The notes under the pieces were generated by a model, which saw nothing but the letters and a program-made list of their open reading frames with translations, did not search any database and had not been told where the DNA came from. Of a stretch of DNA of 64,000 nt, positions 1 to 27,759 are shown in pieces. Location of the stretch: NCBI GenBank assembly GCA_043797125.1, contig JAZDPX010000006.1:70921-134920 (forward strand), written 5' to 3'. How positions within the stretch are numbered: position 1 is the stretch's first letter; the number at the start of each line of letters is the position of its first letter. The position numbers and the translations under genes were made by a program. The DNA is from Candidatus Omnitrophota bacterium. Lineage in GTDB: Bacteria; Omnitrophota; Gorgyraeia; JABMRG01; JAFGKX01.

Positions 1-602
1 TCTATCATAACCTGAGGCGTTCGCATATCCAGCTTCGCAAGCGTAGCTTCTATTAAAGAGAAATCCGAGGGCACGGATGTTACAATAAGGCTGTTTGTTC
101 TTTGGTCTATCAACACCTCGCCAAAAGTTTTCCCACCGCTGTCTTTGGCAAGCAACTTTTCCATGATAGACTTTATATCCCCGCCTTGCTGGCTGCCTGC
201 ACCGCCTGTGCCTGTATTGACCTTCGCATAATTAAGGTTATAGACTTTGGTAACCATCTTTATCCGCGGCGTAGTTGCCTCCTTTACGATAAAAACAGAG
301 CTGTTTGGCTTCTGCTCATAGGTAAGGTTGTTTGCGTCTATTATAGAATCCAAAGCATCTTGCACAGTAACGCCGTCTAAATAAAGGGTAAGTTGTTTGT
401 TCTCAATTTCCCTGGTTGCTACAAAGTTTAAGCCTGCCTGTTGAGAAAATATCTTAAGCACGTCTTTAAGCGCGGCTTGCTGAAAATCCATCGAAATAAG
501 CCTTTGTTCGTCTTGCGCGTAATTTAAATTCGGATAAAAGACAAAACAGATAACGCATAAAAATACAGTGAAACCCCTAATCCCACCGATTATATTCTTC
601 AT
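1..602 (-). CDS. pilQ: Secretin PilQ/GspD, N-terminal part; the gene continues past the window start
   Basis: Minus-strand translation from the ATG at 600-602 gives MKNIIGGIRGFTVFLCVICFVFYPNLNYAQDEQRLISMDFQQAALKDVLKIFSQQAGLNFV..., i.e. a signal peptide followed by a secretin N-domain pattern. The frame stays open to position 1. It sits immediately downstream of pilP. The ORF track does not list it because it is truncated. Confidence 0.7.
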   Translation of the reverse strand, partial: MKNIIGGIRGFTVFLCVICFVFYPNLNYAQDEQRLISMDFQQAALKDVLKIFSQQAGLNFVATREIENKQLTLYLDGVTVQDALDSIIDANNLTYEQKPNSSVFIVKEATTPRIKMVTKVYNLNYAKVNTGTGGAGSQQGGDIKSIMEKLLAKDSGGKTFGEVLIDQRTNSLIVTSVPSDFSLIEATLAKLDMRTPQVMI

Positions 603-626
603 TTTTTCTCCTCGCCCGCAGGCGGG

Positions 627-1118
627 CTACTTCTTTACGAAAAACTCTATACCTTTATATTCTACAGTTATCCCGTTTTTATCCACCGAAAGGAGCTTTG
701 CGCCTTCTATCTGGTCTCCAACTGAAAATACCTTGCCGTTTGCAATTACCTGCGGCCTATCTGAATTCCACACAAGCCCGCTTATGCTAATCTTGGGCGG
801 CTCGACACCTTGAGCCTTTAATAACTTTGTTTGCATATTCGGAAGCATGCCGACCATATAAACAAAAAACTGGTCTTTTAGAGGATCAATGGCATCAAGC
901 GCTTTATATTCTGCCTTTTTAAGCTCTGCTTTTATTTTCTCCAATGTCTTCTGTTCTTCTTCTATAAACGGTTGAGCCTGCGCGGAAGAGGCCGCTTCTA
1001 AAGTTTCGGGTGCGGGGGCTTTTTTAAAACTGCCTATAAACTTCGATGCCAAACCTAAAGCAAAAATAGGTAAAAGGACTATAAGTATTAGCTTTTCTGC
1101 TTTTTGTTTTTCCATCAT
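627..1118 (-). CDS. pilP: Pilus assembly protein PilP-like (the secretin-associated protein GspC/PilP)
   Basis: 163 aa with an N-terminal TM/signal segment and a Lys/Glu-rich linker. The C-terminal beta-domain reads ...ISGLVWNSDRPQVIANGKVFSVGDQIEGAKLLSVDKNGITVEYKG. It lies between pilO and the secretin. Confidence 0.55.
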   Translation of the reverse strand: MMEKQKAEKLILIVLLPIFALGLASKFIGSFKKAPAPETLEAASSAQAQPFIEEEQKTLEKIKAELKKAEYKALDAIDPLKDQFFVYMVGMLPNMQTKLLKAQGVEPPKISISGLVWNSDRPQVIANGKVFSVGDQIEGAKLLSVDKNGITVEYKGIEFFVKK

Positions 1119-1708
1119 TGCCTCGATGAATAAGTTTCCAATACAATATTTACTCCCGCAACCGCCGGAGCATTAATATCGGTGGAAGCCTGTTGAGATT
1201 CCCATCTTTGCGCTTGAGGCTGCGGGCCCGTAGCCTCGAAGCTAATGCTTTTTATCTCAATGCGCGGTTTCGCATTTTCGATTATTTCTACAAATTTACC
1301 AAGTTGATCATAGGTGCATTCTAACTGCATCGTTGTGGAAAATACTACATATTTATCTGCGCCGTACTCTCTTGTTGAACTTATAGACACAACCTTCACC
1401 TTCGACTCCGATGCCAGCTTTGATAGTTGCCTCCTGATTGCATCAGCATCTTTGCTTTGAAGAACGATATCTTCATAACCCTTACTTATACTGCCTAACT
1501 TGCTTATTTCTTCGCGTAGGTTATTTTTTGTCGTCTGTTCCTGGCACTGTTTATTATACTGCGCCACATTATTAGCTCCCTTTTGATATATGCCCTTATA
1601 ACATATAAAAAGTGCCAACACTAAAACAATGCCGCCAATTATATAGTCTCTTTGTTTTTGATCAATCGCGCTAAGAAATTCAAGAATTTTCATTTTTCCC
1701 CGCCGCAT
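1115..1708 (-). CDS. pilO: Pilus assembly protein PilO-like (related to GspM)
   Basis: 197 aa with one N-terminal TM helix (IIGGIVLVLALFICY), a coiled-coil, and then a periplasmic domain. The start overlaps the upstream pilM/N gene by 19 bp. Confidence 0.55.
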   Translation of the reverse strand: MRRGKMKILEFLSAIDQKQRDYIIGGIVLVLALFICYKGIYQKGANNVAQYNKQCQEQTTKNNLREEISKLGSISKGYEDIVLQSKDADAIRRQLSKLASESKVKVVSISSTREYGADKYVVFSTTMQLECTYDQLGKFVEIIENAKPRIEIKSISFEATGPQPQAQRWESQQASTDINAPAVAGVNIVLETYSSRQ

Positions 1709-3204
1709 TGAATTGTGTAATTTGTTACCTCATATGAAGCTGTATTGTATGAGCTAACATTTTCTTTCCTAATATCCCCGAGCTTGCAACTACTAAATCC
1801 CTGCATAAACAGCTTATCCTGTTTAAGCGTTTCTAAAAATTTATTTACAGCGTCTATCTGGTTTGTGCCTTCCTGAAAAAATGCCTTTCCTTTAAGCAGC
1901 ATTGTGATTTCAGCCTCAAAAAGATTCTCTGCCCTGACCATATTAATCCATACGCCTTGAGGCAAATCCGCGGCAATGCGATTCAGTTTATCTGTTAAAA
2001 ATATCTTTTTTGTAATCAATGATTTTAAAAACTCGATTGTTTTTGTTTCTTTGTCCTTTAATTGCAAAAGCCCGTCAATTCCAAGATTCCCAGTCTGCGC
2101 AGGCAGGGTCCTTGCTTTATCCATTACTGCGTTTAAGCGCGTCTTGGCGGAGATAACTGTTCCAATGCTGTAAAAAAGCGTAAGTAAAATAAGCGCTGCC
2201 GCAATGCCGGCTGCAACAAAAAGCTGCCTGCTTAACTTGAACTCTCTAACTCTTGTTTTAGGAGGCAGAATATTTACCGAATACACATCCTTTCCTAAGC
2301 CGACCATTGCCGCCCCTGCGGCAATAATCGCGCCGAGTGAATGAACCTTTTCGCCTTTAATTACTTTACTAAAATCCACTGTCTCTATAGCCATATTAAG
2401 GTCCTCTGCCAACTTTTTTCTTAAATCAGAGGCATCCTCTTTTGCGCATATGATTAATTTCTTAATTTCTTTTGACGCGGGTTTTCTCTTATAATAATCA
2501 AATGATAACCTCATCTCGCTGACTAATTTCTCTATAAGGGCGTCTTTGTCTTTGGGTATCGCAATACCCCTGTTTATGGTGGGGCAATTTTCTTCGATGA
2601 TGCTTATGCTTGCCACATCCTCCGCGACGCTAAGCTGCAGCAGGGCTATTGTATCCTTTTCTTTAAAAAACCTCTTGTTCTGATTAATAACCCTCAACAA
2701 GGCAAACGGAACAATATCCATTATGCCTGTTTTTAGCCCCGCGTCGGAAAATAGTTTTAATTCTGATTCTACGTCGGCTTTTTGCGCGGCAACAAAAAAT
2801 ACGCGCATTGTCTTGTGCTCTCTATTGGTATCTATTACTCTAAAATCCGAGTAAATATTCTCTATCTTAAAAGGAACATATTTTCTGGCCTCAAAATTAA
2901 TTGCCTGCCCTTGCTCTGATTTAGGCAAAAGAGGCATATCAAAATGCCTGATCATCACCCCTTCTTCAGACAGAACAGAATAAACGATATCAGAGCTTAT
3001 CTTAAGCTTGCCAATGGAGGATTTTATCGCTGCGACTATCTTGGCGCGCTGTTTTTGGTCGGAAGAAGGAACCTGTTCGTTTTGCGGCAGAGTAATATCC
3101 TCTCTTATGTGATCCACCAAGAAGGGCTTGTTAATAGCTCCTGTAACTGCCGCCACATCCACAAAATTTTTGCCTACATATATGCCGATGCCTTTGTTAG
3201 CCAT
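1690..3204 (-). CDS. pilM: PilM (actin-like ATPase fold) fused to PilN (TM + periplasmic) pilus assembly protein
   Basis: 504 aa. The N-terminal ~330 aa is a PilM/FtsA-like domain (GIGIYVGKNFVDVAAV...). It is followed by a TM helix (LFVAAGIAAALILLTLFYSIG) and a PilN-like C-terminal region. Confidence 0.6.
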   Translation of the reverse strand: MANKGIGIYVGKNFVDVAAVTGAINKPFLVDHIREDITLPQNEQVPSSDQKQRAKIVAAIKSSIGKLKISSDIVYSVLSEEGVMIRHFDMPLLPKSEQGQAINFEARKYVPFKIENIYSDFRVIDTNREHKTMRVFFVAAQKADVESELKLFSDAGLKTGIMDIVPFALLRVINQNKRFFKEKDTIALLQLSVAEDVASISIIEENCPTINRGIAIPKDKDALIEKLVSEMRLSFDYYKRKPASKEIKKLIICAKEDASDLRKKLAEDLNMAIETVDFSKVIKGEKVHSLGAIIAAGAAMVGLGKDVYSVNILPPKTRVREFKLSRQLFVAAGIAAALILLTLFYSIGTVISAKTRLNAVMDKARTLPAQTGNLGIDGLLQLKDKETKTIEFLKSLITKKIFLTDKLNRIAADLPQGVWINMVRAENLFEAEITMLLKGKAFFQEGTNQIDAVNKFLETLKQDKLFMQGFSSCKLGDIRKENVSSYNTASYEVTNYTIQCGGEK

Positions 3205-3396
3205 TTATATACCTCTGCCCATAATCTTTTTAAGGGCCGCAATATCTCTTTCCGTATATTCCCTCCAACCGTTGAGTTTATTTCTCACCGCCTTCGGGAA
3301 TATGCCTTTGATTTCATATCTAATAAGCGTCTGCTTGGAGATATCCAGTATTTCAGCGACTTCATTAACTGAATAATATTTTTCCGCGCGCATCAT
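3205..3396 (-). CDS. Small excisionase/MerR-family HTH DNA-binding protein
   Basis: 63 aa with ...YSVNEVAEILDISKQTLIRYEIKGIFPKAVRNKLNGWREYTERDIAAL, which matches the excisionase-family HTH_17 pattern. Its stop abuts the pilM start. Confidence 0.6.
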   Translation of the reverse strand: MMRAEKYYSVNEVAEILDISKQTLIRYEIKGIFPKAVRNKLNGWREYTERDIAALKKIMGRGI

Positions 3397-3427
3397 TATA
3401 TATTTCTCCTACTCGTAACGGTCGAAT

Positions 3428-3453
3428 GTAGCGCAGGCTTAAGCCTGCGCTAC
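3428..3453. repeat. Family A perfect palindrome GTAGCGCAGGCTTAAGCCTGCGCTAC (copy 1)
   Basis: 26-bp perfect hairpin. Identical copies are at 42733-42758 and 61727-61752. Confidence 0.8.
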
Positions 3454-3613
3454 ATCTGTGTCGCAATACCTTACAAACTTGGTTATAGCATCAGGCGGCA
3501 TCTGATAGCGTCTGATATACTTTGATATGAGTATATACTACCTGAGTGTATGTGTCAAGTATTTTTGGAATTTTTTTGAAATATTTATATCTGTAGGAAA
3601 AGGGGGGTTCTGG

Positions 3614-3997
3614 TTACGCTGCGCTTCTGATTGCTTCTGATGCCTTTTTTGCGCTCTTGAGTGTGAATGATTGAATATCGTAATAGCAGTGTTTAGAGGT
3701 GTACGAAAAATCTGCGTTGAAAGGGCGGCCCCATGAAGTCATATCTATTATTTTAAGTGGCGAAGTTTTCAGTAAAAAGTTTTTTATGCCCCTTCTGCCG
3801 TAAAAATCTGATCCGCTATTGATGTTTTTTGGATAGATTCCCCATGAAGCAGGCACTATTTTAAAAATGTCTTTCCAGGATTTTATTTCCAGCAATCTTT
3901 GCATATCTATTATATTTCCCGACTTTACATCCGCCATAAAGACAATGCCTTTGGATATTAAAATTCTAGATACATCATCCATAATAACCCTGGCCAT
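3614..3997 (-). CDS. Hypothetical protein
   Basis: 127-aa ORF with no recognisable motifs. It lies downstream of the LRP-protein pair. Confidence 0.3.
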   Translation of the reverse strand: MARVIMDDVSRILISKGIVFMADVKSGNIIDMQRLLEIKSWKDIFKIVPASWGIYPKNINSGSDFYGRRGIKNFLLKTSPLKIIDMTSWGRPFNADFSYTSKHCYYDIQSFTLKSAKKASEAIRSAA

Positions 3998-4033
3998 TGC
4001 CAGCTGAATAGAATGTGAAAATTTGTGCCAGCC

Positions 4034-5443
4034 TTACTCCAAAAGCTTATTCTGTTCTTCATCAAGCGGAAACCACTGCTTCCATAAATCTACATAATCT
4101 TTTATTGAGTGCGCAAAATCCTGAATAGCCATTGAAAATACCACAAAATTAGCGGAATTATCTTCAAAAAGCCTTTTATCGATAGGCAAAACGTAATTGA
4201 TTATCTTCTTGGGGTCGCTTATTTCCTCATACAAATCCAACACTTTCTGGATAGGAAATTCTTTTCCAAGCATAGCTTTTTCTTCAATGCCGGATTTCAT
4301 TAATTCATCAATTTTTTTGGCTGCCCTATCGAGAATAAGAGTTGCATCTGCTTTAATAATCTCGACCCGCCCAGCTTCATCATGTGTAATTTCATGTTTA
4401 TCGACCAATTTCTTAAGCGCCCTCTCGGAAAGCCCCCTAGCCAATTCTATTAAAACAATCTTTCTGTATTTAATCGAACCATCGGGAAGCGTTTCTCTTA
4501 GCATCTTTTTCAAAGGCAGACCCGAGAAGTGGCCGCCGCCTAAAACAACCGCCGCGCCTTGCTGTTTTACCCTATTCGATGCCCGCATAATCTCTTGTTT
4601 TACTTTTTCAAAATGCGCATTCAGTCTCCTGCTATGCTCTGTATCCTGCGAAATCATTGATGGATAAATCTCTGCTGCGTAGTTGTGGGTTTCGGCAAGT
4701 ACGGGGCCCAAAACTTCAGGGCCTCTTTCACCTTTAACCCAAAGATTCAAGCCCTCTATGCCCCGCGCAAAATCATCCGGTAAAAAACGCGTTGGCTGCT
4801 CGATGGTAAAAAAACTTAATCCTAATCTATACAGAAAATATGCTCTGTCAAAATCTATGCAGCCCATTCTGTAAATTCTTTCAGCCAAAAAATAAAAAAC
4901 ATCGCTTGGCATGTATAAATCGAAAATTAAATATTCGTATAGGCCTCTTAATGTAAGATCCTCTGCAGCTCCGAGCGCTTCATCATAAGCCTCTATTGCT
5001 TGCTTAGTTTTCCCCTGTGAATGAAAATATATACTTTGCAATATGTGCATAATAGGCCACAAGTTAATTCTAATAATAGTAGTGGCTTCTTCCTGATTAA
5101 TTCCTCTTTTTAGCATTTCGTTAGCAATCATCGTATCTAAAAATTCCGGCATCTTTTCATCCTCTAAAAAGAAAAATTCATCATAGTATTCGGGGGCATA
5201 TTTTATTATCAGGGCCACCAGCTGCTTTCCATCCTTCCATTTAGATTTAAAATACGCTATATTTGCGGTTCTAATTGCAGCTTTATCACGGTTCGGATCC
5301 AGCTCAAAGCCTGTTTTTTCTCTATCTCTATCAAAATTAACTTTGCTGACAGGCCGCAATCCGTCTTCGGCAAAAGCAGGGACTGTCCCTATTTTTGATG
5401 TTGCCAATATAATGGCTATTGCTATGGCGAGGAGTTTTCCCAT
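4034..5443 (-). CDS. Exported hypothetical protein; member of the 'LRP' N-terminal motif family
   Basis: 469 aa. The N-terminus MGKLLAIAIAIILATSKIGTVPAFAEDGLRPVSK has a signal peptide followed by GLRPV. Confidence 0.5.
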   Translation of the reverse strand: MGKLLAIAIAIILATSKIGTVPAFAEDGLRPVSKVNFDRDREKTGFELDPNRDKAAIRTANIAYFKSKWKDGKQLVALIIKYAPEYYDEFFFLEDEKMPEFLDTMIANEMLKRGINQEEATTIIRINLWPIMHILQSIYFHSQGKTKQAIEAYDEALGAAEDLTLRGLYEYLIFDLYMPSDVFYFLAERIYRMGCIDFDRAYFLYRLGLSFFTIEQPTRFLPDDFARGIEGLNLWVKGERGPEVLGPVLAETHNYAAEIYPSMISQDTEHSRRLNAHFEKVKQEIMRASNRVKQQGAAVVLGGGHFSGLPLKKMLRETLPDGSIKYRKIVLIELARGLSERALKKLVDKHEITHDEAGRVEIIKADATLILDRAAKKIDELMKSGIEEKAMLGKEFPIQKVLDLYEEISDPKKIINYVLPIDKRLFEDNSANFVVFSMAIQDFAHSIKDYVDLWKQWFPLDEEQNKLLE

Positions 5444-5471
5444 TTTAACCTTTTGTTCTTATCTCAAAATG

Positions 5472-6332
5472 CTATGCGCTTGCTTCTATAGCTCCTGGAA
5501 GATCCAGCAAGGTGGCAGGGCAGGTAAAGTTATCCTGGCCGCCCATAAAAAACTTTAACACTATCGGCACCTCTATATCTGTTTCATCAACAAAGCCCAT
5601 TTTTAGCAAGAATTTTTTCATTTCACGAAAATTATCGCTTCTTCCCTGAGGTGCTCTCCACCTAAAATCCTCGTCAAAAATTATATATTGAAATTCATCT
5701 ATTTCAGGTGGAAATATATTTCCCCTCTTTGCTATAATCATAAGCGCTGCTAATGCCTCTGGGCCATAACCCTTTCTTGAGAAATCGTGAACATGCGCAG
5801 TATGCGGCCGACCATGAATAGAGTATCTAAAAAATACTGTATGTGGAGTATCTATAGAATACGTTAATATGCCATGGCCAACTATTTCCTGTTTTTTATT
5901 TTCAATTGACAAAACATATGCTTTATCAAAAAATTTCTCATCGGGATTCGTACTAAAACACTGGGCATAACCTGTAGTTTGTGGGAGTTCGGGACGCGCC
6001 TCAAAACAGATTACTCTCAATCTTCCTATTTTGAATATGATACATTCATCGGTGTTTAAGCTTTCTGGCGTATAGGCTTTTGCTAATATTGAGTCGTACT
6101 CATAGCCGGCATCTACCTTATCTCTGTAAGCTATATTTATCAAAGGCGTTACCTTCTTTCGCCTTTTTACTCTTTCAACGCTAAAATCCAATTCATGTAT
6201 AGATTTTTCTAAAGATGCGGAGATAATTTTGCTAGGTGTTTTTCCTTTTGTAGCTGCCGGACGCAGCGCAAGGCTCTGCTGTGGTAAAATTAGTGTTGTT
6301 AGTATTACGAATAGAACTAGTTTCTTTAGCAT
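5472..6332 (-). CDS. Exported hypothetical protein with the LRP motif; the C-terminal half may adopt a GNAT-like fold (weak)
   Basis: 286 aa. The signal peptide ...LPQQSLALRPAATKG is followed by the motif. The C-terminal region has RKGYGPEALAAL, which fits a Q/RxxGxG/A acetyl-CoA motif. Confidence 0.45.
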   Translation of the reverse strand: MLKKLVLFVILTTLILPQQSLALRPAATKGKTPSKIISASLEKSIHELDFSVERVKRRKKVTPLINIAYRDKVDAGYEYDSILAKAYTPESLNTDECIIFKIGRLRVICFEARPELPQTTGYAQCFSTNPDEKFFDKAYVLSIENKKQEIVGHGILTYSIDTPHTVFFRYSIHGRPHTAHVHDFSRKGYGPEALAALMIIAKRGNIFPPEIDEFQYIIFDEDFRWRAPQGRSDNFREMKKFLLKMGFVDETDIEVPIVLKFFMGGQDNFTCPATLLDLPGAIEASA

Positions 6333-6574
6333 TTCCCTTTATATCCCCATTAATTAAATGTTTTATCCTTCGGCTTGCTCAGGATAACCCTGAGCAAGCG
6401 AAGCGTGTCGAAGGGTTAATTTAGCCCAAAATAATGAAACCCCGAAGGTAGACTCTTATGAAGTTCTACATTCGGGGCCCTTTTCATTTACTAATTATAT
6501 AGTGTAACACATAGATATGGGCATTACAAGGAAATTAAGCCTTAAGGCCACCAAGTCACAAGTGAACGTATAAA

Positions 6575-6775
6575 ACGTATAATAAGTGAGGTTTTTGCAA
6601 TGTGAGGTGCATTAGAAATTTTTTTCCAAATGTCTTTTTAGAACTTACGACGAGGGAACGGCTAAGTTTGGATGTTTGGGAAAGTGACCGAGTCGTAAGT
6701 TCAAAAAGACGGAAAAAAATTTCAGCACCGAACATTGCGAAAACCGAACTATGACAGAGATTGCTTCGTCGCCTG
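6575..6775. repeat. Long-hairpin element with conserved termini (family D, copy 1; MITE-like)
   Basis: The 5' end GTGAGGTTTTTGCAATGTGAGGT and the 3' end TTCAGCACCGAACATTGCGAAAACCGAAC are partially inverted (TTTTGCAATG / CATTGCGAAAA). The interior is self-complementary (GAAATTTTTTTCCAAATGTCTTTTTAGAACTTACGACGAG / GAGTCGTAAGTTCAAAAAGACGGAAAAAAATTTC). Confidence 0.6.
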
Positions 6776-6830
6776 GAATAGGCAAAGGCTCCTCGCAATG
6801 ACGGCGATGTGGAAGCTTTAGCGGGATTTG

Positions 6831-7481
6831 TTACAACTTCAGCTTTTCGATATTCACGGCCTTCCCGATAACTACGAAAGCGCTGTCTGCTTTTATTACG
6901 TAGCTTGGCTCGGGAACCAGGTAAAATTCATCGTGAAGCACATCTTTAATAGCTATTATTTCAACGCCGTATTTGTTGCGCAGTTTAAGTTCGCTTAACT
7001 TCTTTCCTATCAGATTTTCAGGGATGGCTATTTCAACAATGCTGTATTCATCTGCCATGGGAATGTGCTCTATAAGATTCTTTGTAGTCAGCTTTATAGC
7101 CAGCGCGATAGCCCTGTCCCTTTGAGGATAGATAACTTCCGTGGCGCCTGTTAGCTCCAGTATCCTGCCGTGGTTTTTATTAATTGCTTTTGCTATAATA
7201 TCTTTAATTCCTAAGCTCTGCAGATTAAGCACCGCCAATACGCTTGACGCTATATCGCTGCCAAGGCTTACTATTACAGCGTCGGCAAAATCCTCAACAA
7301 GTTTAGCTAAAACCTTTTCGTCCCTGGCGTCGGCTATTACCGCCACGCTTACCTTATCGCTTATATCCTGTATTTTTTTTTCATCTTTGTCTATAACCGT
7401 TACCTTATGCTGGCGCTGCGCTAAAGCCAGCGCTAAATTATATCCGAATTTATCCATTCCTATTATTATATAATGTTTCAT
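6831..7481 (-). CDS. TrkA/KtrA-type K+ transport regulatory protein with RCK_N and RCK_C domains
   Basis: MKHYIIIGMDKFGYNLALALAQRQHKVTVIDKD is a Rossmann GxGxxG motif. The domain order is TrkA-N followed by TrkA-C. Confidence 0.75.
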   Translation of the reverse strand: MKHYIIIGMDKFGYNLALALAQRQHKVTVIDKDEKKIQDISDKVSVAVIADARDEKVLAKLVEDFADAVIVSLGSDIASSVLAVLNLQSLGIKDIIAKAINKNHGRILELTGATEVIYPQRDRAIALAIKLTTKNLIEHIPMADEYSIVEIAIPENLIGKKLSELKLRNKYGVEIIAIKDVLHDEFYLVPEPSYVIKADSAFVVIGKAVNIEKLKL

Positions 7482-8611
7482 TTTTTAGCTCCTTTATACA
7501 CTCTCGGCACTCTCGAACTAATCCAGCAAACCACCTCATAGGGAATAGTGCCGCAAATAAAAGCAATCTCTTCTGCTGTTATGCGCTCCTTGCCCTTCGC
7601 GCCGATTAAAACTACTTCATCGTCTACTGCGGCATCCTTAATATGGCCGACATCCACCATAATCTGGTCCATGCATACCCTGCCTACTATGGGGGCTCTT
7701 TGGCCTCTTACAAGAACCGAGCCTTTGTTTGAAAGCAGCCTGTTATACCCGTCAGCATACCCGATAGGCAAAACAGCAATCTTAGTATTCCTTTTTGTAA
7801 TATACGTACCGCCGTAACTTATCTGCCTGCCCGAAGGAGTGTCTTTTATGTAGCAAATTTTACTTTTTAATGTTAATGCAGGGCGAAGCGTAATTGTTTT
7901 CTTAAGTTCCATATTGGGGTAAAGCCCGTAAATCATGATTCCGGGCCTTATAATATTAAAATGCGCGTCTTTACATGTAACGGCACCTGCGCTGTTGGCG
8001 GTATGCTTATATTTTATATATACCCCTTTCTGCTCCAATTCATTAAGCAAATTTATAAAATTCTCTATCTGTTCACCGGTAAAATCGATATTATCGTCTG
8101 CGGAGGCAAAATGCGTAAAGATGCCCTCAACAGCTAAATGTTTCATACCTAATACCTCTTCCGCAAAATGCACTGCCTCGCTGTGCCACACTCCTAATCT
8201 GCCCATTCCCGTGTCTATTTTAAGATGGATCTTTACCTTTGTTTTCTTTTTTTCCGCAACGCGGTTAATGGCCTTTGCCAATTTTAATCCGGGAACTGTT
8301 TGTATTATTCTGCTATCCAGAAGGGCCGGTATTTCCTTTTCTGTGATTGCGGTGAGATTTAAAATAGGAACTCCCAGGTTAAACTTTTTTAATTCTATTG
8401 CCTCATCAATACTTCCGACGCCAAAATAATCAACGCCGCAGGCCTCTAGCGCCCTACATACGCCAAGCATTCCATGGCCGTAAGCATTTGCCTTTACGGC
8501 AACGAGTATTTTAACAGAGCTGCCAGCCAGTTTCCTGAATTGCAAAAAATTATGTCTTATCGCTGACAGGTCTATCTCTGCATATGTCGGCCGGTACGTA
8601 GGTATTTTCAT
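7478..8611 (-). CDS. alr: Alanine racemase
   Basis: ...KILVAVKANAYGHG... carries the PLP-lysine motif; the protein is 377 aa with a C-terminal beta domain. Confidence 0.85.
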   Translation of the reverse strand: MKIPTYRPTYAEIDLSAIRHNFLQFRKLAGSSVKILVAVKANAYGHGMLGVCRALEACGVDYFGVGSIDEAIELKKFNLGVPILNLTAITEKEIPALLDSRIIQTVPGLKLAKAINRVAEKKKTKVKIHLKIDTGMGRLGVWHSEAVHFAEEVLGMKHLAVEGIFTHFASADDNIDFTGEQIENFINLLNELEQKGVYIKYKHTANSAGAVTCKDAHFNIIRPGIMIYGLYPNMELKKTITLRPALTLKSKICYIKDTPSGRQISYGGTYITKRNTKIAVLPIGYADGYNRLLSNKGSVLVRGQRAPIVGRVCMDQIMVDVGHIKDAAVDDEVVLIGAKGKERITAEEIAFICGTIPYEVVCWISSRVPRVYKGAKK

Positions 8612-8617
8612 ATCAAC

Positions 8618-8735
8618 TTTATCCGCCTTCCTTGCTTTTGAACTTCGTGGTAGATAACGTACGGCGGATAACCCGCCGTAGGCTATCTACTCCGAACTGC
8701 CCAATACACGAAGGCGGGCTATCTGGCATTCCTTC
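8618..8735. repeat. Family C composite GC-hairpin repeat (GGCGGATAACCCGCCGTAGGCTATCTAC ... ACACGAAGGCGGGCTATCT), copy 1
   Basis: It shares TTATCCGCCTTC, GAACTTCGTGGTAGATA, GGCGGATAACCCGCCGTAGGCTATCTAC and GAACTGCCCAATACACGAAGGCGGGCTATCT with 15378-15580. It overlaps the tsaB 3' end. Confidence 0.75.
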
Positions 8736-9391
8736 GGATATATATAAAGCGGCAGCAGTTTATAGGGTGAATCCTTATATCCTGCCTTATATCTTACCAA
8801 TGCCAGCTTTCCTAATACATCAGCCTTCGGATAACACGACTCCTCGGGCGCAAAAAAGACAAGCCCCTTTTTTGCCTTTAAAATCTTTTCCTTGTGCTGT
8901 TTGATTATGTCGCCGGCTATAATAGTCGGCTGTTTTATCAAATCCAGAATATCTTCTAACGGCTTTAAAATAAAATCTGTATACGGTTCTGCAGATGCCT
9001 CTTTTTGTTTATAAAAGCGCGCATAGGCATTATTCTGCCTGGCATCAAACAAGATACAAACATCGGTATTGGCCTGCCCTGTAAAATTATTTGCAATTAC
9101 ATCGAAACTCGAAACCCCGACCAAAGGCCTCTTTAGCGCTATGCTAAAAGTTCGTATGGCAGCAAGAGATGTCCTTAATCCTGTAAATGAACCCGGCCCT
9201 GTGCCTGCGCAAAAAAGCTCTATTTCTTCTATGCGCCAATTGATATTTTCCAGCAGTTTCTTAACTTCAGAAACAACTGCTGAGCCCTGGCTTCTTAAAA
9301 AATTCTTGTGCAACAGCGCCATGGGCTTTTCATCGCTTAAAAGGGCTATGCTAATTGTTTTTGTTGATGTATCTACCGCTAATATCTTCAT
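8687..9391 (-). CDS. tsaB: tRNA t6A biosynthesis protein TsaB (YeaZ); the C-terminal ~16 aa are encoded by a family-C repeat element
   Basis: MKILAVDTSTKTISIALL... is an inactive Kae1 paralog. The C-terminal PKECQIARLRVLGSSE* lies inside the repeat at 8687-8735. Confidence 0.75.
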   Translation of the reverse strand: MKILAVDTSTKTISIALLSDEKPMALLHKNFLRSQGSAVVSEVKKLLENINWRIEEIELFCAGTGPGSFTGLRTSLAAIRTFSIALKRPLVGVSSFDVIANNFTGQANTDVCILFDARQNNAYARFYKQKEASAEPYTDFILKPLEDILDLIKQPTIIAGDIIKQHKEKILKAKKGLVFFAPEESCYPKADVLGKLALVRYKAGYKDSPYKLLPLYIYPKECQIARLRVLGSSE

Positions 9392-9864
9392 CCCGCACCT
9401 TTTTTATATTCATTTTTAAATTGTTCAAAGGTGCGGGATTCATATCTTTTTCCGAAACCCTGCAACTCTATTTCTCTTGAATTTTCATCTAAAATTTTTA
9501 TTTTAATCTCCAAGTACTGCTTGGGCAGCAGGGCCTTTATTTTCTGCGCCCATTCTATCACGCAAACGCCGTCATTATAAAGATATTCTTCAATGCCCAA
9601 CGATTCTGCGCCTGTTAAATTATCTAGGCGGTATAAATCAATGTGATAAAGCTGGAGCCTGCCCTCATACTCTCTTATTAAAACAAAGGACGGGCTATTT
9701 ACATAGTCGGAATTTTTTACGCCAAGGCCCTCGGCAATGCCTTTTGTTAAAGTGGTCTTTCCGCTGCCGAGTTCGCCTGTCAACGCTATAACATCTCCGG
9801 CGTTAAGGCAAGTTGAGAGTTCTTTGCCGAAATCTATTGTATGCTTTGCAGTTCGAGTAATCAT
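9388..9864 (-). CDS. tsaE: tRNA t6A biosynthesis ATPase TsaE (YjeE)
   Basis: GDVIALTGELGSGKTTLTKGIAEGLG is a P-loop; the size and context next to tsaB fit. Confidence 0.8.
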   Translation of the reverse strand: MITRTAKHTIDFGKELSTCLNAGDVIALTGELGSGKTTLTKGIAEGLGVKNSDYVNSPSFVLIREYEGRLQLYHIDLYRLDNLTGAESLGIEEYLYNDGVCVIEWAQKIKALLPKQYLEIKIKILDENSREIELQGFGKRYESRTFEQFKNEYKKGAG

Positions 9865-9867
9865 ACT

Positions 9868-9965
9868 TATGGGGACGTTTCACTCCCAAGATTGGGAAGT
9901 GTCCCCTTTACCCCACTTCTATGCTCTGGGGACACTTTCCACGCTTGGGAGTGAAACGTCCCCTT
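9868..9965. repeat. About 95-bp nested inverted repeat between thiL and tsaE
   Basis: GGGGACGTTTCACTCCCAAG ... CTTGGGAGTGAAACGTCCCC forms a 20-bp outer stem around GGGAAGTGTCCCC / GGGGACACTTTCC. Confidence 0.75.
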
Positions 9966-9977
9966 TTTTTCTTTTTT

Positions 9978-10874
9978 TTAAAAGTGTTCATATCCTTCAG
10001 GCTCAAGCCGGCTTTCCTTGCCCCTTCTATCAACCAAAACCATCCTTCCTGCATTATTCGTTATCTCGCCTATCGCGGTTATCTTTATTTTTCTTTTTTT
10101 GGAACTTGAAAGCAGCCTTTTGGCGTCTTTTTTCGCTGTCGTAAAAAGGAGCTCAAACTGCTCGCCTGTTGTAAGCGCTCTTTTTACGGATGCGCCTTCA
10201 TAAGGAATTAAAGACTCGTAAATTTTAGCGCCTTTTTTGCTTTCAGATAAAATGCGCCATAGGTCAAGCGCAAGTGAGTCAGATATATCTATCATGGAAT
10301 TTATCTTAAAATTATCCGCCAAAAACTGCGCTTCTTTAATCCTGGGAGAAAAACCTAAATCATTAGGATAAGGCCTTAAAGCCCCTGTTATAAATATCAC
10401 ATCTTGATCCTTCGCGCCGCTGCGAAGGGCAAGCCTTTTCTTGGATACTTCACCGATTAGAGTAACGGATAAAACCATTTTTTTTGAAAAATTTGTATCG
10501 CCGCCTACTATGGATATGCCGAATTCAGAAGCTGTCTTATGCATGCTAAGATAGAGCCTTTTAATAAAATCGACACTAATGTCCTTTGGCAGGCCTACTG
10601 AAACAAGCGCCCATTTTGCCTTGCCGGCGCATGCTGCTATATCGCTTATGTTCACCGCCATTGCCTTATGGCCTATCTGTTCCGGGGATGCCTTATCCAG
10701 CCTAAAATGCGCATCTTCAATTATCATATCGGTAGTAACAAGAAGATATTTGTCTTTAGTATATTTAAGCACGGCGCAGTCATCGCCAATGCCTTTAAAC
10801 ACCGAAGGGGGAGTCTTTGTAAGTGCGGCTATTTTATTTATTAGAGCTATTTCGCCTATGTCGCGTAGTTTCAT
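9978..10874 (-). CDS. thiL: Thiamine-monophosphate kinase
   Basis: The AIR-synthase-related fold shows in ...GDDCAVL...LLVTTDMIIEDAHF. Confidence 0.75.
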   Translation of the reverse strand: MKLRDIGEIALINKIAALTKTPPSVFKGIGDDCAVLKYTKDKYLLVTTDMIIEDAHFRLDKASPEQIGHKAMAVNISDIAACAGKAKWALVSVGLPKDISVDFIKRLYLSMHKTASEFGISIVGGDTNFSKKMVLSVTLIGEVSKKRLALRSGAKDQDVIFITGALRPYPNDLGFSPRIKEAQFLADNFKINSMIDISDSLALDLWRILSESKKGAKIYESLIPYEGASVKRALTTGEQFELLFTTAKKDAKRLLSSSKKRKIKITAIGEITNNAGRMVLVDRRGKESRLEPEGYEHF

Positions 10875-11907
10875 GTTTTAATCTGTTTAAACTTTCTCGA
10901 TACGGCTTCCTGTACGTCCCCTTCTCCGTAACAAACGCTGTAACCAATTCCCCCGGCGTAACATCAAATGCCGGATTATATACTTTTACATTTTTCGGCG
11001 CTATATAAACAGGCCCGACCTTTCTTACTTCATCTGGGCCTCTCTGTTCTATCGGAATATTTTTACCGTCGCTTAAGCTAAAATCGAAGCTTGAGCTCGG
11101 GGCACAGACATAAAACGGTATTTTATGAAATTGCCCCAGCAGCGCTAAATTATAAGTGCCTATCTTATTTGCAAAATCGCCGTTTGCAGTTATTCTGTCT
11201 GCGCCGACTATTATCTTGCTTACCTTACGCGCCTTCATCAGGGAAGCTGCCATATTATCGCAGATTAACGTAACATCAATTCCCTTCCTCATAAGCTCCC
11301 ATGTAGTGAGCCTGGCTCCCTGCAAAAGCGGCCTTGTTTCATCCGCGTATACCTTTATTCTCTTGCCCCTTTTTTTTGCCGCGTAAATAACCGATAGCGC
11401 AGTCCCGTCGCCTGCTGTGGCCAATGCCCCGGCATTGCAGTGGGTAAGCACAACATCTTTATTCTTTAAAAGCCTTTGGCCGAATTCACCGATTTTTCTG
11501 CACATGGCCTCGTCCTGCGAATGAATCCATTTTGCTTCCTTAAGTAAAATGGAACATATTTGCTCTACGGATTTATTTTTATTTTTACAGGCTTTTGCCT
11601 TTATCCTTTCCATGGCCCAGGACAGATTCACGGCTGTGGGCCGCGCAGCTTTCATCTTTTCTACTATTTCATACAATTTCTTAAAAAAATCTTTTCTTTT
11701 CTTAAATTTCAAATTTCGGATTGATACATACACTCCGTATGCGGCGCAAACTCCAATGGCCGGCGCGCCTCTGACTGAAAGCGCCTTTATAGCGCGCGTT
11801 ACGTCTTTTAAGGACCCCAAGGTTTTATAGGTAGTGTTGTTTGGAAGCCTGCGCTGGTCTATAATCTTTAGTTTACCGTTTCTATATTCTACTGTTTTTA
11901 CTCTCAT
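10834..11907 (-). CDS. mtnA: Methylthioribose-1-phosphate isomerase, or an eIF-2B-family isomerase
   Basis: ...GKLKIIDQRRLP...RGAPAIGVCAAYG... is the eIF-2B alpha/beta/delta family signature. Confidence 0.7.
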   Translation of the reverse strand: MRVKTVEYRNGKLKIIDQRRLPNNTTYKTLGSLKDVTRAIKALSVRGAPAIGVCAAYGVYVSIRNLKFKKRKDFFKKLYEIVEKMKAARPTAVNLSWAMERIKAKACKNKNKSVEQICSILLKEAKWIHSQDEAMCRKIGEFGQRLLKNKDVVLTHCNAGALATAGDGTALSVIYAAKKRGKRIKVYADETRPLLQGARLTTWELMRKGIDVTLICDNMAASLMKARKVSKIIVGADRITANGDFANKIGTYNLALLGQFHKIPFYVCAPSSSFDFSLSDGKNIPIEQRGPDEVRKVGPVYIAPKNVKVYNPAFDVTPGELVTAFVTEKGTYRKPYRESLNRLKHETTRHRRNSSNK

Positions 11908-11909
11908 AT

Positions 11910-12965
11910 TTAACCTGCTTGAGCCATTACGCTTTTGACAAAAAACATAATCGATGCCAATGCGGCATTATGCGTAATATGGACGATGATAGACGGAATA
12001 AGCGAGCCTGTCTTTTCCCTTAAATATGCCAAAAAGATGCCGAGGCCGAGTATCGGGAAAAATCCAATTATATTCGTATGAAGCGCGGAAAAAATCAACG
12101 CAGTAATAATTATAGAGGCTGCCGCGCTTAGAGTCTTTTTTAAGGCGGGATATAAAAACCCCCTGAAGAAAATCTCTTCTATTACAGGCCCGATAAAGGC
12201 CGCCATAACCGATACTACCATCAACACAGAGAATCTGCGCTCTTTAAATATCAATTCGTATATCGGTTGGGGTTGCGGCATATAGTTGAGCAGCTTGGCA
12301 ATAAATACTACGCATAAAAATGTCGCGGCCAAAACCGGCAAAAATGCCAAATATCCATAAACCGCTACACCTATATTTTTTGCAACGGCTTTTAATGAAA
12401 TGCCTAATGCGGTTATCTTCTGTTTATATTTTACCGATACAAAATAAATAACTACTATGAGCATAAGCATATCCATCAGCGTAGTATCCAAAATCATAGA
12501 TAGCCTTTCATCCAGTAAAGGTTTGTTAAAAAAGCCTGCCAGAACATTCCCAAGCGCAAAAACCAGATGATTAAAAAATAAAAATATTATTACAATCTTT
12601 ACAGCATCTTTCCAGCTCCAGAGGGCCGGATCTTCATCAAGCATCTTTGGAATTAAATCTTTGCCTTTTGCCTTATTAACAATGAAGGTGGCAAGAAAAA
12701 TAATCCCCAAAACAAACAATACAAATACAATGAAACAAATATAAGCGAACCTTGTGGCAATTTTAGGATTTTCAGCAAGCGCCTTTTCAAAAAGGCCTTT
12801 GTCTTCATCGAGCTGCTGTTTGAAACTCTGCGCCTTTTGCGGCCTGGCCTTCAAGCTTTGTTTAGGGTCTTGCGCATGAATAAAAATGCCGTGTGCCTGA
12901 ATAAGCAATATCCCTACAATCAGCCATACGTAGAATTTATTATTGGCGTAAGCCCCGCGTATCAT
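11910..12965 (-). CDS. CPBP-family (CAAX) intramembrane metalloprotease
   Basis: Multi-TM protein with an EEIFFRG...HITHNA motif arrangement. Confidence 0.65.
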
Positions 12966-14491
12966 ATCCTTGGAAAAAGCGGCACAGGCTTTGATACTGT
13001 ATGGCCCTTTTTGATATAACCTTTATTCAATATCAGCCCTGCGCAATCTGTTATATCCTCTTTTATTCCAAGCTGCAAGGCCATCTTACTGCTTGTAGAC
13101 GGCATGGACGGGTATATTAATACGGCGATCGTCTCCAACGCCTTTAACAGCGACATTATGAATGCTGCCAGCCTTTGGGCGTCGCCTGACTTGGCAATAT
13201 TCCACGGTTTTGAATCCTCTATATATTTATTAGCGGCATTTATAAGCGCCCAGATGCCTGCCAGGGCCTTGCTTATCTGCAGCTCGCCCATCTGCTTGTC
13301 GACTTCTTTAATAGTATCGTTCCTTAGTTTAAGCAGCTGTTTTTCCTCGTCTGACATAAGCCCTTCTGAAACTATTTTCCCGTCGAAATATTTATGCACC
13401 ATATTCAGGGTTCTGTTCAGCAAATTACCTAAATCATTTGCCAGGTCCGCGTTGTATCTTTCTATAAACAAGGCCTGATTAAAATTGCCGTCTAAGCCCA
13501 TTGTCACCTCCCTTAACAAAAAAAGGCGCAAGGGGTCTGCCCCGTATTTTTCTATTAAAGGTTTTGGATCTACCACGTTGCCCTTTGACTTAGACATTTT
13601 CTCTCCTGACATAATCCACCAGCCGTGCGCCAAAACGCATTTTGGCGGTTCGATATCCAAGGCATGCAGCATTATGGGCCAGTAGACCGCGTGAAAACGC
13701 AGTATATCCTTGGCCATTACATGTATATCCGCGGGCCATATCTTTTTAAAATTATCAGGATTGCCGGCAAAGCCTGGGGCGCTTATATAATTTAACAACG
13801 CATCAATCCACACATAGGCTACATATTCCGGAGCAAAAGGCATCTCGATGCCCCACGAAAGCCTCTTGCGCGGCCTGGAAACGCAAAGATCAGGCAGCGG
13901 TTCCTTTAAAAGGCCCAGAACTTCGTTTTTTCTGAAATCCGGCTTAATAAAATCAGGGTGCGCGAGTATGTGGTCTTTCAGCCAGCCCTGATATTTTGAA
14001 AGCTTAAAAAAATAATTTTTCTCGCTTATATATTCCGTATCGCGGGCGCAATCAGGGCAGAGCTTATCCTGAACAAGTTGAGTTTTCTGCCAGAATGTTT
14101 CGCAAGGCACGCAGTAATAACCGTCATATGTATCCTGGAAGATATCGCCTTTTTCATAAAGTATCTTCAGGGCCTTTCCCACAGCCTGCATGTGACGGGG
14201 CTCTGTCGTCCTTATAAAATCATCGTAGGAAATATCCAGGGCCTTCCAAAGCTCTTTAAATTTCAAGACTATTTCGTCGACAAATTCCAGCGTATCCTTA
14301 CCTGAGGCTTCCGCGCAGGTTTTAACCTTCTGGCCATGCTCATCCGTGCCTGTCAAAAAGTATACCTTCTCGCCCTTTAGCCTTTTATATCGCGCTATAC
14401 AATCGCAGATAATCTGCGTGTAGGAATGGCCTATATGAGGGGAGGAATTGACGTAATATAACGGAGTAGTTATGTAAAATATCTTTTTCAT
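12962..14491 (-). CDS. metG: Methionyl-tRNA synthetase
   Basis: HIGH (PHIGHSY) and KMSKS motifs are present, together with zinc-knuckle cysteines. Confidence 0.9.
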
Positions 14492-14496
14492 AATTT

Positions 14497-14580
14497 AGTC
14501 TATGGTCTATGGTCGATGGTCGATGGTTGATGGTCGATGGTTGATTACCGACTATAGACTATCGACTATTGACCATCGAC
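14497..14580. repeat. Family E repeat (GGTCGATGG / GACTATCGAC direct and inverted units), between ricT and metG
   Basis: TCTATGGTCTATGGTCGATGGTCGATGGTTGATGGTCGATGGTTGATTACCGACTATAGACTATCGACTATTGACCATCGACTATT. A related copy lies at 29470-29545. Confidence 0.7.
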
Positions 14581-15368
14581 TATTTATTATAATCCACCTT
14601 CACGTGCCTGCCGTCTTCAAGCTCAACCGTAACAACGCGTTTTAAAAAATTAACATCCACTACCTTCCCTGTTTCGTTCTGATATTTTATCTTTTGCCCC
14701 GGGTGCGGCAGGCCCTTGGAAAGTTTCTTGTAATGGGTATGTTCGTATGACAGGCAGCACATAAGCCTGCCGCAAAGCCCTGAAATTTTTGCCGGGTTTA
14801 GGGGAAGGTTCTGGTCCTTTGCCTGTTTTATCGAAACAGGTTCAAAGTCCCTCAAGAAACTTCTGCAGCAAAGCATCCTGCCGCAAGGCCCGAAACCTCC
14901 GAGGATCTTCGCTTCGTCGCGCACGCCGACCTGCTTTAATTCAATCCTGGCCTTGAACATCTTTGCTAAGTCTTTGACTAATTCCCTGAAATCTATTCTT
15001 TCCTCAGCTGTAAAATAAAATATGATCTTGCTGCAGTCAAAAGAGAATTCCCCCTTGATCAACTTCATGTTAAGTTTATGCTGGATTATTTTACCGTCGC
15101 AGGTCTTCATGACCTCTTTTATTTTTTCGCGGTTTTCTTTTATTTTGTTTATGTCTGCCTGGTCGGCGATTCTAACTGCTCTTGGAAGCTCCTCTTTAAG
15201 CTTTTTTTCATCCAACACCAGCTCTGCCTCTGATAAAATCTGCCCGTAATCAAGGCCCCTGTCCGCTTCGATAATAACATACGCTCCGGGAAAAACATTT
15301 AAATCGCCTATGTCATAAACCTCTATCTTGCCGAATTCTCTCTGTCTTATCTGTATCGCTCTCTTCAT
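14580..15368 (-). CDS. ricT: PSP1 C-terminal domain protein RicT/YaaT
   Basis: Strong similarity pattern to B. subtilis YaaT: ...IFYFTAEERIDFRELVKDLAKMFKARIELKQVGVRDEAKILGGFGPCGRMLCC. Confidence 0.8.
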   Translation of the reverse strand: MKRAIQIRQREFGKIEVYDIGDLNVFPGAYVIIEADRGLDYGQILSEAELVLDEKKLKEELPRAVRIADQADINKIKENREKIKEVMKTCDGKIIQHKLNMKLIKGEFSFDCSKIIFYFTAEERIDFRELVKDLAKMFKARIELKQVGVRDEAKILGGFGPCGRMLCCRSFLRDFEPVSIKQAKDQNLPLNPAKISGLCGRLMCCLSYEHTHYKKLSKGLPHPGQKIKYQNETGKVVDVNFLKRVVTVELEDGRHVKVDYNK

Positions 15369-15377
15369 TGTCTATCC

Positions 15378-15580
15378 TTTATCCGCCTTCGCTGTTAATA
15401 AGAACTTCGTAGTAGATATGCTTCGGCGGATAACCCGCCGTAGGCTATCTACCTTCGCCAAGCAGCTTTCGCGCTTGGCTTCGGCGGATACGCCCGCCGA
15501 AGGCTATCTACACCGAACTGCCCAATACACGAAGGCGGGCTATCTACTACGAACCCACCCGATACACGAAGGCGGGTTAA
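15378..15580. repeat. Family C composite repeat, copy 2 (longer, with internal duplication), between holB and ricT
   Basis: Same modules as copy 1, with extra units GGCGGATACGCCCGCCGAAGGCTATCTAC and CACGAAGGCGGG repeated. Confidence 0.75.
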
Positions 15581-18441: not shown

Positions 18442-18467
18442 TATCTTTTACCAACCAAACTCTTCTC

Positions 18468-18700
18468 ACGGGTGAGGTTTTTGCGATGTGAGGTACTTAA
18501 AAAGCTTTTGTGTGTGTTGCCGGAGCGACTGTCAAAAATTGCGAAAACCCGGCGAGCAGTGAGCAATTTTTGCCACAGCGAGCAAAAAGCGCCTTTCGCC
18601 GAAGGCGAAAAATCCTTTTTGCGAGCGGCAAGCGAAGGCAACCACACAAAAGCTTAAAATTTCAGCACCGAGCATTGCAAAAGCCGAACTTTGGTAATAG
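18468..18700. repeat. Family D long-hairpin element, copy 2, between cysE and cysS
   Basis: Same termini (GTGAGGTTTTTGCGATGTGAGGT ... TTCAGCACCGAGCATTGCAAAAGCCGAAC). The interior is a different perfect inverted repeat (AAGCTTTTGTGTGTGTTGCC / GGCAACCACACAAAAGCTT). Confidence 0.6.
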
Positions 18701-19372: not shown

Positions 19373-19385
19373 CTTTATTCTCCTG

Positions 19386-23048: not shown

Positions 23049-23049
23049 T

Positions 23050-27722: not shown

Positions 27723-27759
27723 CTCTTACCTCCTGTTATCAATAAAATAGAACGTTATA

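Follow-up and report, generated by a model that had tools for sequence, protein, structure and literature searches.

Palindromic repeats, probably of two or more mechanistic kinds, at the gene junctions of a gene-dense Omnitrophota chromosome

Are the palindromes that lie between the tightly packed genes of an uncultured bacterium a selected part of gene expression, or repeat DNA that is merely tolerated there? The question is raised by a stretch of 64,000 nucleotides from Candidatus Omnitrophota bacterium (assembly GCA_043797125.1, contig JAZDPX010000006.1, positions 70,921 to 134,920 of the forward strand), referred to below as the window and numbered from its first letter. By our own arithmetic ~94% of the window is coding; the non-coding DNA totals ~3.7 kb (~6%), and the repeat elements described here make up roughly 60% of it. 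An initial annotation, made from the sequence alone, had listed at least nine palindromic families and offered two explanations: colonisation by repetitive extragenic palindromic (REP) sequences or miniature inverted-repeat transposable elements (MITEs), or a strategy of RNA processing or transcript insulation. The first proves largely right. It is probable that two or more mechanistic kinds of small palindromic repeat have colonised the otherwise spacer-less junctions of this gene-dense chromosome, and that most of the elements are selfish or neutral DNA, which is tolerated at gene boundaries and nowhere else.

That the spacers are rich in structure is borne out by folding. When minimum free energies were expressed as z-scores against dinucleotide shuffles, 15 of 25 intergenic spacers fell below -3, compared to 1 of 75 length-matched coding controls. 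Relative to the upstream stop codon, elements start at -9 to +22 nt; 2–40 nt separate their ends from the next start. Most of the proposed families were recovered with the copy numbers first given (Table 1): three identical copies of family A, two of family C (with blocks 90–96% identical), two of family E, three intragenic sites of family F, two GCCCGCAGGCGGGC hairpins, and the ATCAGA/TCTGAT cluster. Families D and J had been listed without coordinates; the best match for D is a set of three ~200–250-nt hairpin regions with common ~25-nt ends, and a 29-nt identical pair fits J. For family B two full dyads were found, the supposed third copy being a partial element only. The repeats therefore stand, but nine is an overcount, since a single architecture underlies B, E, the ATCAGA cluster and the hairpin at 55236-55306. 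The 7-nt periodicity that unites them had escaped the initial annotation.

Family A (GTAGCGCAGGCTTAAGCCTGCGCTAC) is a 26-nt perfect palindrome, GTAG-CGCAGGC-TTAA-GCCTGCG-CTAC, with an 11-bp stem and a 4-nt loop; its three identical copies in the window compare to none expected from shuffles. When species-representative genomes were scanned, this 26-mer, TTAA loop included, turned up eight times in the fragmentary Omnitrophota metagenome-assembled genome (MAG) nzgw291 and twice in Omnitrophica RIFCSPLOWO2_01_FULL_45_10 – in both with flanks unrelated to those in the window – and six further copies lie on metagenome contigs. All 19 copies are extragenic, and most are no more than 100 nt from a stop codon. 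Family A matches the defining features published for GTAG-type REPs (PMC3733652) and is one of them.

In Escherichia coli, Pseudomonas and Stenotrophomonas, GTAG-type REPs occur with a REP-associated tyrosine transposase, RAYT or TnpA-REP (Di Nocera et al. 2013, PMC3733652; Bertels & Rainey 2011, PMC3116915). A search for such a gene, suggested by the initial annotation, succeeded in a relative. Open reading frame (ORF) 2517-3023 of locus L007, from MAG nzgw291, is the sole ORF with an HUH...Y motif in all retrieved DNA; it matches Pfam Y1_Tnp (PF01797; E = 2.8e-15), and among solved structures its best relative, placed above the IS200/IS605 transposases, is TnpA-REP of E. coli (4ER8; E = 8.4e-11). 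Identical family A copies border it on both sides (2449-2474 and 3009-3034), the downstream copy supplying its stop codon from the TAA in the hairpin loop. About 25 close homologues were found; a metagenome scan with the RAYT protein returned no relatives. At three of the four loci examined the orthologue lies upstream of spoVG-yraN-comM, and in L034 and L007 comEC precedes the gene. Hairpins flanking RAYT at these loci are 26 nt long and follow the pattern GTAG-N7-TTAA-N7-CTAC with lineage-specific stems: compensatory changes affect 5 of 11 stem pairs, while GTAG/CTAC and TTAA are invariant. If REP and RAYT are partners, then the stem should co-vary with the lineage of a vertically inherited RAYT, and this is what the compared sequences indicate. 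The mechanism we propose is that a domesticated single-copy Y1 transposase – its gene, in relatives, between comEC and spoVG and itself bordered by GTAG hairpins – would recognise GTAG hairpins as single-strand DNA and copy them.

Several further features of the RAYT loci were recorded. A direct repeat of ~31 nt, aaaaaagataaaatttagtgaacgaaaaac, lies outside both REPs in L007 (2386-2422 and 3044-3080) and may be a duplicated junction or a piece of a larger unit. Text resembling 'gaacgaaaa' precedes RAYT in L034, L035 and L037. Repeated CACACTAAG / GCAGACTAAG motifs, ~15 nt apart, precede the RAYT-flanking REPs of L035 (1380-1470, 2000-2066) and L037 (1400-1470, 1990-2058), so that short periodic repeats beside REPs are not unique to the window. 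Outside the phylum (Acidobacteriota, Chloroflexota, Cytophagales and a cyanobacterium) the 11-bp stem GTAGCGCAGGC/GCCTGCGCTAC occurs with the loops TTCA, TGAA, TTTA, TAAA and AGAA (L001, L003, L004, L005, L009, L010, L014, L018, L019), in L009 among tandem GTAGCGC-like units; the matches were not taken as family A. A few coincidences of 11-bp stems are plausible given billions of bases with many GC hairpins; alternatively, the matches may represent GTAG REPs of separate origin.

The second kind of element is built differently. Tandem Repeats Finder detected 16 arrays of at least three copies in the window, 13 with a period of 7 and two with a period of 8, and 11 of the 13 period-7 arrays are intergenic. 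Family B, family E, the ATCAGA cluster and the hairpin before the transfer-messenger RNA (tmRNA) gene follow a shared plan – a tandem 7-nt (once 8-nt) array, then an inverted array – and form one architectural class. The hairpin at 27757-27877 resembles them, with no tandem array detected there, and probably belongs with them. Because a run of units is followed by an inverted run, the arms would be able to pair in any register. The two full B dyads are ~93% identical over ~112 nt and the two E dyads ~85% identical; in both pairs the ends are sharp and the order of unit variants is kept. As this order is kept between junctions, the dyads were copied rather than grown independently. In both E copies the stop codon TAG forms part of the first unit. 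Independent change of the arms is seen in the 8-mer dyad (63051-63184), of which only one arm carries an exact 30-nt tandem duplication.

The two kinds of element meet at several points. E arrays and the positions 11 nt upstream of family A copies 2 and 3 account for all six occurrences of ATGGTCGAT (0.4 expected); in mRNA sense, copy 2 shows a stop codon, ATGGTCGAT, 11 nt and then the palindrome, and the upstream arrangement at copy 3 is the same. TCGACC follows copy 1. The A-rich array at 44887-44963 has a 20-nt GC palindrome, CCTGCCTGCCGGCAGGCAGG, nested within it. From the ATGGTCGAT placement and the nested palindrome it appears that REP-like palindromes tend to lie inside or beside heptamer runs.

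If the elements were required, orthologous junctions in related species should keep them. Two such species, X and Y, were compared. At the PSP1-metG junction the 88-nt spacer of the window holds a TAGTCGA dyad, and species Y has a dyad of 136 or 150 nt made of TAATCAG/TAGTCAG units, with the same phase from the stop codon; in species X the two genes overlap. The thiL-tsaE junction holds an unrelated hairpin with 36-nt arms in the window, a heptamer dyad in species Y and no spacer in species X, while the spacer that holds the family C cluster between holB and PSP1 is absent from both. Heptamer arrays are lineage-restricted: the window has them, as does species Y (81% PSP1 identity), and ~20 kb of species X and ~58 kb of more distant Omnitrophota loci have none. 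Three species Y strains share 99.7% identity, and in ~20 kb just two indels distinguish them, of 14 nt and 100 nt, both in heptamer dyads. The first, equal to two units, separates L023/L027 from L024/L025/L026. The second is the presence or absence of a whole element: filled L023 has 103 nt, including a GAGGA ribosome-binding site of its own, in place of AAT in empty L024. Three species Y dyads have near-identical centres. Taken together, the junction comparisons are the record of turnover in tolerated DNA, not of conserved RNA structures that are required. The comparisons show heptamer dyads changing in length by whole units, the outcome expected of replication slippage, being copied to new junctions, and being gained or lost as complete elements.

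The placement of the elements nonetheless invites a reading at the level of RNA: a selected system of factor-dependent terminators without U-tracts, RNase sites or 3'-end stabilisers that insulate cistrons and share a recognition factor. The positions relative to stop and start codons given above favour this, as do the two hairpins that bracket the tmRNA gene, the ribosome-binding site supplied by the L023 element, a structure upstream of cysS kept in three species, and the report that GTAG REPs elsewhere are transcribed and act as RNA elements (PMC3733652). Such a system is, however, hard to reconcile with orthologous junctions in species X where genes overlap and no hairpin exists, with one junction holding different element types by species, or with presence and absence between 99.7%-identical strains. 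The folding energy summed over 31 elements is -1160 kcal/mol for the sense strand and -1190 kcal/mol for the antisense strand, and G-U pairs are not over-represented on the mRNA strand; the major hairpins have no U-tract, and Rfam gave nothing in the window apart from tmRNA. We therefore consider the selected RNA system unlikely, and the processing or insulation strategy put forward by the initial annotation is not supported. Intrinsic terminators were separately rejected as a candidate: a terminator scan of 1-20000 picked out only the short GCCCGC hairpin among the family hairpins, and no T-runs follow the A, B, E or 8-mer dyads. Secondary effects are another matter. REPs of E. coli affect mRNA 3'-end stability or termination-coupled translation; transcribed elements here would put a strong hairpin 0–20 nt from the upstream stop codon and may have comparable effects.

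For the heptamer dyads a purely local origin can also be envisaged, in which each grew where it stands out of a short palindrome near a stop codon, with slippage of 7-nt units, intrastrand template switching, and convergence or gene conversion in place of mobility. A length polymorphism of exactly two units, the exact 30-nt duplication in one arm of the 8-mer dyad, the stop codon within the first unit of both E copies and the unit sequence that differs by species at one junction with its phase kept are all consistent with it, and heptameric simple sequence repeats are over-represented in many bacteria, where slippage is held responsible (PMC4692102). A local origin does not account for B copies that, at unrelated junctions, share ~93% of ~112 nt together with variant order and sharp ends, for E copies that behave alike, for the near-identical centres of three species Y dyads or for a whole 100-nt element that differs between strains. 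These require copying between loci, and we rate a wholly local origin as slightly less probable even than the RNA system. Least probable are sites of DNA architecture, where a nucleoid or topology protein would bind or cruciforms would organise supercoiling domains. Bacterial interspersed mosaic elements (BIMEs) of E. coli bind integration host factor (IHF) and gyrase; family A is a perfect DNA palindrome whose TTAA loop is itself palindromic, folding has no strand bias, three heptamers span 21 bp (by our own reckoning about two helical turns) and the family C cluster is BIME-like. Neither a binding protein nor any regularity of position came to light in support of architectural sites, and turnover between strains and species speaks against sites that are required.

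Colonisation by repeat DNA remains the reading we prefer, and the following points weigh against it. The window holds no transposase: a six-frame scan for HUH/Y motifs was empty, and the ten ORFs without a function recognised by eye gave no match to a transposase family in Pfam, the other ORFs having been named by eye or by synteny. RAYT was seen in a relative; of the present genome, the 64 kb of the window were scanned. Each family A copy there stands singly rather than in REP doublets forming hairpins (REPINs), its orientation is undefined in a perfect palindrome, and its GTAG, unpaired in most published REP families, is base-paired to CTAC. Heptamer dyads are tied to RAYT by adjacency alone, through the placement of ATGGTCGAT. 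The 100-nt indel replaces 3 nt amid a cluster of single-nucleotide polymorphisms, and recombination instead of transposition is possible; at the boundaries of B, E and the L023 element there is no convincing target-site duplication or clean empty site. Placement close to stop codons and around the tmRNA gene could reflect function, not mere tolerance. For family A, REP colonisation is upheld by its GTAG foot, its extragenic position throughout, its recurrence in other Omnitrophota and its place beside RAYT in a relative. For heptamer dyads the name MITE applies loosely: inverted terminal arrays, dispersed sharp-ended copies and presence or absence between strains fit the term; no target-site duplication was found, and no partner transposase in the window. 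We infer a copying agent for these dyads. More speculatively, they could be a self-propagating class of hairpin that has register-free arms whose pairing withstands the gain or loss of units, is seeded at stop codons, is copied by a hairpin-recognising enzyme (possibly RAYT), offers landing pads to REPs and is at times exapted as in-frame peptides of essential proteins; in this full form we think the proposal rather doubtful, if somewhat less so than the RNA system.

Table 1. Repeat elements and reference genes of the window. The rph-, rdgB-, gspF-, ilvE-, queF-, mcsB-, pilO- and MFS-like genes were named by eye.
Feature	Position	Strand	Description and context
Family A copy 1	3428-3453	.	between strong promoter-like site (3558-3530) and merR-like gene 3205-3396
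Family A copy 2	42740-42765	.	between rph-like and rdgB-like genes
Family A copy 3	61728-61753	.	between gspF-like and peptidase-MA genes
Family B copy 1	22944-23051	-	(AATTAAA)n / (AATTTTT)n AT-rich dyad; mlaD-to-radA junction
Family B copy 2	30444-30557	-	AT-rich heptamer dyad; lolD-to-ilvE junction
Partial B-like element	44887-44963	-	A-rich direct heptamers; overlaps 3' end of queF-like ORF
Family C copy 1	8623-8724	-	GTAG-footed hairpin GTAGATAACGTACGGCGGATAACCCGCCGTAGGCTATCTAC and flanking arms; tsaB-to-alr junction
Family C cluster	15383-15579	-	three CCGCC..GGCTATCTAC units, BIME-like; fills holB-to-PSP1 spacer
Family D copy	18442-18700	-	~250-nt structured region, cysE-cysS; outer ends common to two other window sites
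Family D copy	~6560-6800	-	~25-30-nt ends TTCGGYTTTYGCAAT... / ...ATTGCAAAAACCTCAC
Family D copy	39184-39375	.	divergent spacer 38981-39430; 32-nt inverted arms and common end motif
Family E copy 1	14496-14598	-	(TAGTCGA)n then (TCGACCA)n; fills PSP1-to-metG spacer
Family E copy 2	29471-29559	-	starts at TAG stop of upstream ilvE-like gene
Family F in cysS	17393-17447	-	55-nt hairpin in variable linker
Family F in lolD	30860-30939	-	hairpin core and (GCCCAAA/GCACAGA) heptamers
Family F in class I fumarate hydratase alpha gene (fumA)	44204-44255	-	(CCACAGC)n
Family J copy 1	50198-50226	-	29-nt exact repeat; overlaps stop of gene 50223-53219
Family J copy 2	53420-53448	-	overlaps stop of MFS-like gene
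GCCCGCAGGCGGGC hairpin copy 1	614-627	-	followed by GAGGAG; abuts TAG stop of gene 627-1118, upstream of secretin gene
GCCCGCAGGCGGGC hairpin copy 2	56281-56294	-	5 nt after stop of pilO-like gene
ATCAGA/TCTGAT cluster	63051-63184	-	tandem 8-nt-unit dyad; 60-nt arms, 82% complementary
Pre-tmRNA heptamer dyad	55236-55306	-	(GTATTGA)n / (CTCAATA)n; between smpB stop and tmRNA 5' end
Two-module CAGAT-rich dyad	27757-27877	-	1 nt after stop of mcsB-like gene; upstream of clpC
Direct heptamer array (GCATAGA)n	35289-35317	-	2 nt after a stop codon
Unique hairpin	9871-9963	-	36-nt arms, 92% complementary; fills thiL-to-tsaE spacer
PSP1-family gene	14580-15368		
lolD gene	30549-31274		
tmRNA gene	54797-55233	-	adjoins smpB; only Rfam match at gathering score

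Among the remaining families, C is probably a GTAG-type REP like A. A GTAG-footed palindrome, GTAGATAACG..CGTAGGCTATCTAC, lies at 8650-8690, and there are four GTAGATA..GGCTATCTAC units in total, three of them clustered at 15435-15547.

Family F differs in lying within genes. The lolD copy is an in-frame loop insertion of ~13–15 aa. Neither E. coli LolD nor any of the six closest relatives has it; in P0179, which is more distant, the same loop holds an independent insertion, 'SPKGTAHSSQP'. In the fumarate hydratase the repeat encodes PTAHSPQPTAHS, a 5-aa insertion compared to a solved homologue. The cysS hairpin is 85% identical to lolD 30885-30939. As an insertion the cysS copy was rejected: alignment with species X and Y gives no length difference, only a variable linker. 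Related heptamer or hairpin sequence thus appears in frame as well, where it would be carried in protein surface loops.

The cysE-cysS region of family D may be of another nature. Its core is kept in three species (18442-18700 in the window, L020:6830-7079, L024:6918-7142) and its outer stem shows apparent compensatory substitutions in species X; Rfam gave no meaningful match to the cysS leader. The region could be a cis-regulatory cysS leader instead of a repeat. ORFs of ~80 aa lie over family D or cysS-leader DNA at 6556-6798 (minus strand) and L020:6844-7083; their translations are of low complexity and they overlap the conserved structured region. Both look spurious, and the 80-aa ORF 6556-6798 is probably so. 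Family J copy 2 is followed by a CCCGAACAG hairpin (53375-53401), and the local sequence at the first GCCCGCAGGCGGGC hairpin is GTAGCCCGCC. The hairpins that bracket the tmRNA gene are the heptamer dyad 2 nt upstream and, at the 3' end, a hairpin with 22-nt arms (54715-54798). The tmRNA itself has a long predicted tag, ADTIRAKVMEVVPVNTGMVSMMPLAA, of 26 residues.

The elements lie between genes of which nearly all are on the minus strand; among long ORFs only 39431-42142 is clearly on the plus strand. The PSP1-family and LolD proteins are 100% identical to NCBI proteins from a Candidatus Omnitrophota MAG. From 1 to 27,700 their order is clpC, mlaEFD, radA, ispDF, cysE, cysS, tmk, holB, PSP1, metG, mtnA, thiL, tsaEB, alr, merR-like, pilMO and secretin, with names based on Pfam via synteny with species X and Y. 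A phage origin, suspected from 64 kb of nearly one strand, was dismissed: there was no match in a phage collection, and the genes are housekeeping genes of an Omnitrophota MAG. Amid them, Pfam matches within 49082-50099 and 33958-35207 (minus strand) point to two toxin-antitoxin-like modules: a HEPN (SAV_6107-like) gene paired with one for a nucleotidyltransferase, and a DUF6036 nucleotidyltransferase that has a small partner upstream. Five minus-strand proteins (4034-5443, 5472-6332, 35320-37437, 37481-38980 and 50223-53219) have in common an (A)LRP motif after an N-terminal hydrophobic segment; apart from 35320-37437 their function is unassigned, and a Pfam scan of four of the five gave no informative match. 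Several ORFs end in Ala-Ala (..QAA, ..GAAA, ..RAA), and CAGGCAGCGTAA-like DNA is common to three gene ends.

These findings bear on more than one question. The REP-RAYT partnership is extended to the uncultured phylum Omnitrophota, in an unusually clean form, and the combination of GTAG...CTAC, an invariant TTAA and co-varying stems offers a convenient natural series for the study of hairpin recognition by RAYT. Gene-dense genomes with overlapping genes can still gather repeats, almost only in the few bases between a stop and the next start. The sites that change fastest from one near-identical strain to another are the heptamer dyads, which might therefore be used to mark strains in metagenomes. 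Annotation is affected as well, since the elements yield spurious ORFs (such as 6556-6798) and extended gene ends.

How do the two kinds of element compare to known systems? Like GTAG REPs, family A is a GC-rich sequence of 26 nt that starts with GTAG, is extragenic, lies mostly just downstream of genes and recurs in relatives, and intragenic repeat copies also occur. The likeness to REP-RAYT systems extends to a Y1 transposase that is bordered by an identical REP, has TnpA-REP as its closest solved relative, and is single and at one syntenic position in most loci examined, with stems that co-vary with its lineage. Unlike most published families, family A pairs its GTAG with a terminal CTAC, so that it reads alike on both strands; its TTAA loop is invariant, and copies in the window are singletons rather than REPIN doublets. 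Omnitrophota was not among the eight phyla of the 2013 survey (PMC3733652), and family A, with family C probably, adds new GTAG REP/RAYT members in a phylum not listed there.

Heptameric intergenic repeats are known as the short tandemly repeated repetitive (STRR) sequences of the cyanobacteria Calothrix, Nostoc and Anabaena and as GGGAATC in Xanthomonas; they are intergenic, variable and sometimes paired in inverted orientation, and slippage has been invoked to explain them (PMC4692102). The present dyads share with them tandem 7-nt units, intergenic positions that include operons, some inverted stem-loop pairs, and unit number and sequence that vary between close relatives at one junction. 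They differ in that arrays almost always form one arm of a dyad, that several unrelated units occur in one genome (TAGTCGA, AATTAAA, GTATTGA and CCACAGC, compared to CCCCAGT and the like or GGGAATC), including purely AT units and none prone to form G4, that dyads are dispersed as discrete copies and arrays abut stop codons, and that the host belongs to another phylum. By this comparison the heptamer dyads are an analogue, not a member, of the STRR and Xanthomonas repeats. Family F, in turn, recalls Rickettsia palindromic elements and intragenic REPs: palindromes lie in frame in the housekeeping genes lolD, fumA and cysS, with the peptide in a permissive surface loop. Unlike the Rickettsia elements (~100–150 nt), family F measures ~40–80 nt, is partly made of heptamers, occupies three sites and has no sequence relation to them. 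Finally, in work by Elhai and colleagues from 2008, small dispersed repeats of Nostoc are said to be nested in heptamer arrays and hairpins; in this arrangement they would resemble both the CCTGCCTGCCGGCAGGCAGG palindrome within its A-rich array and the family A copies flanked by E-type units.

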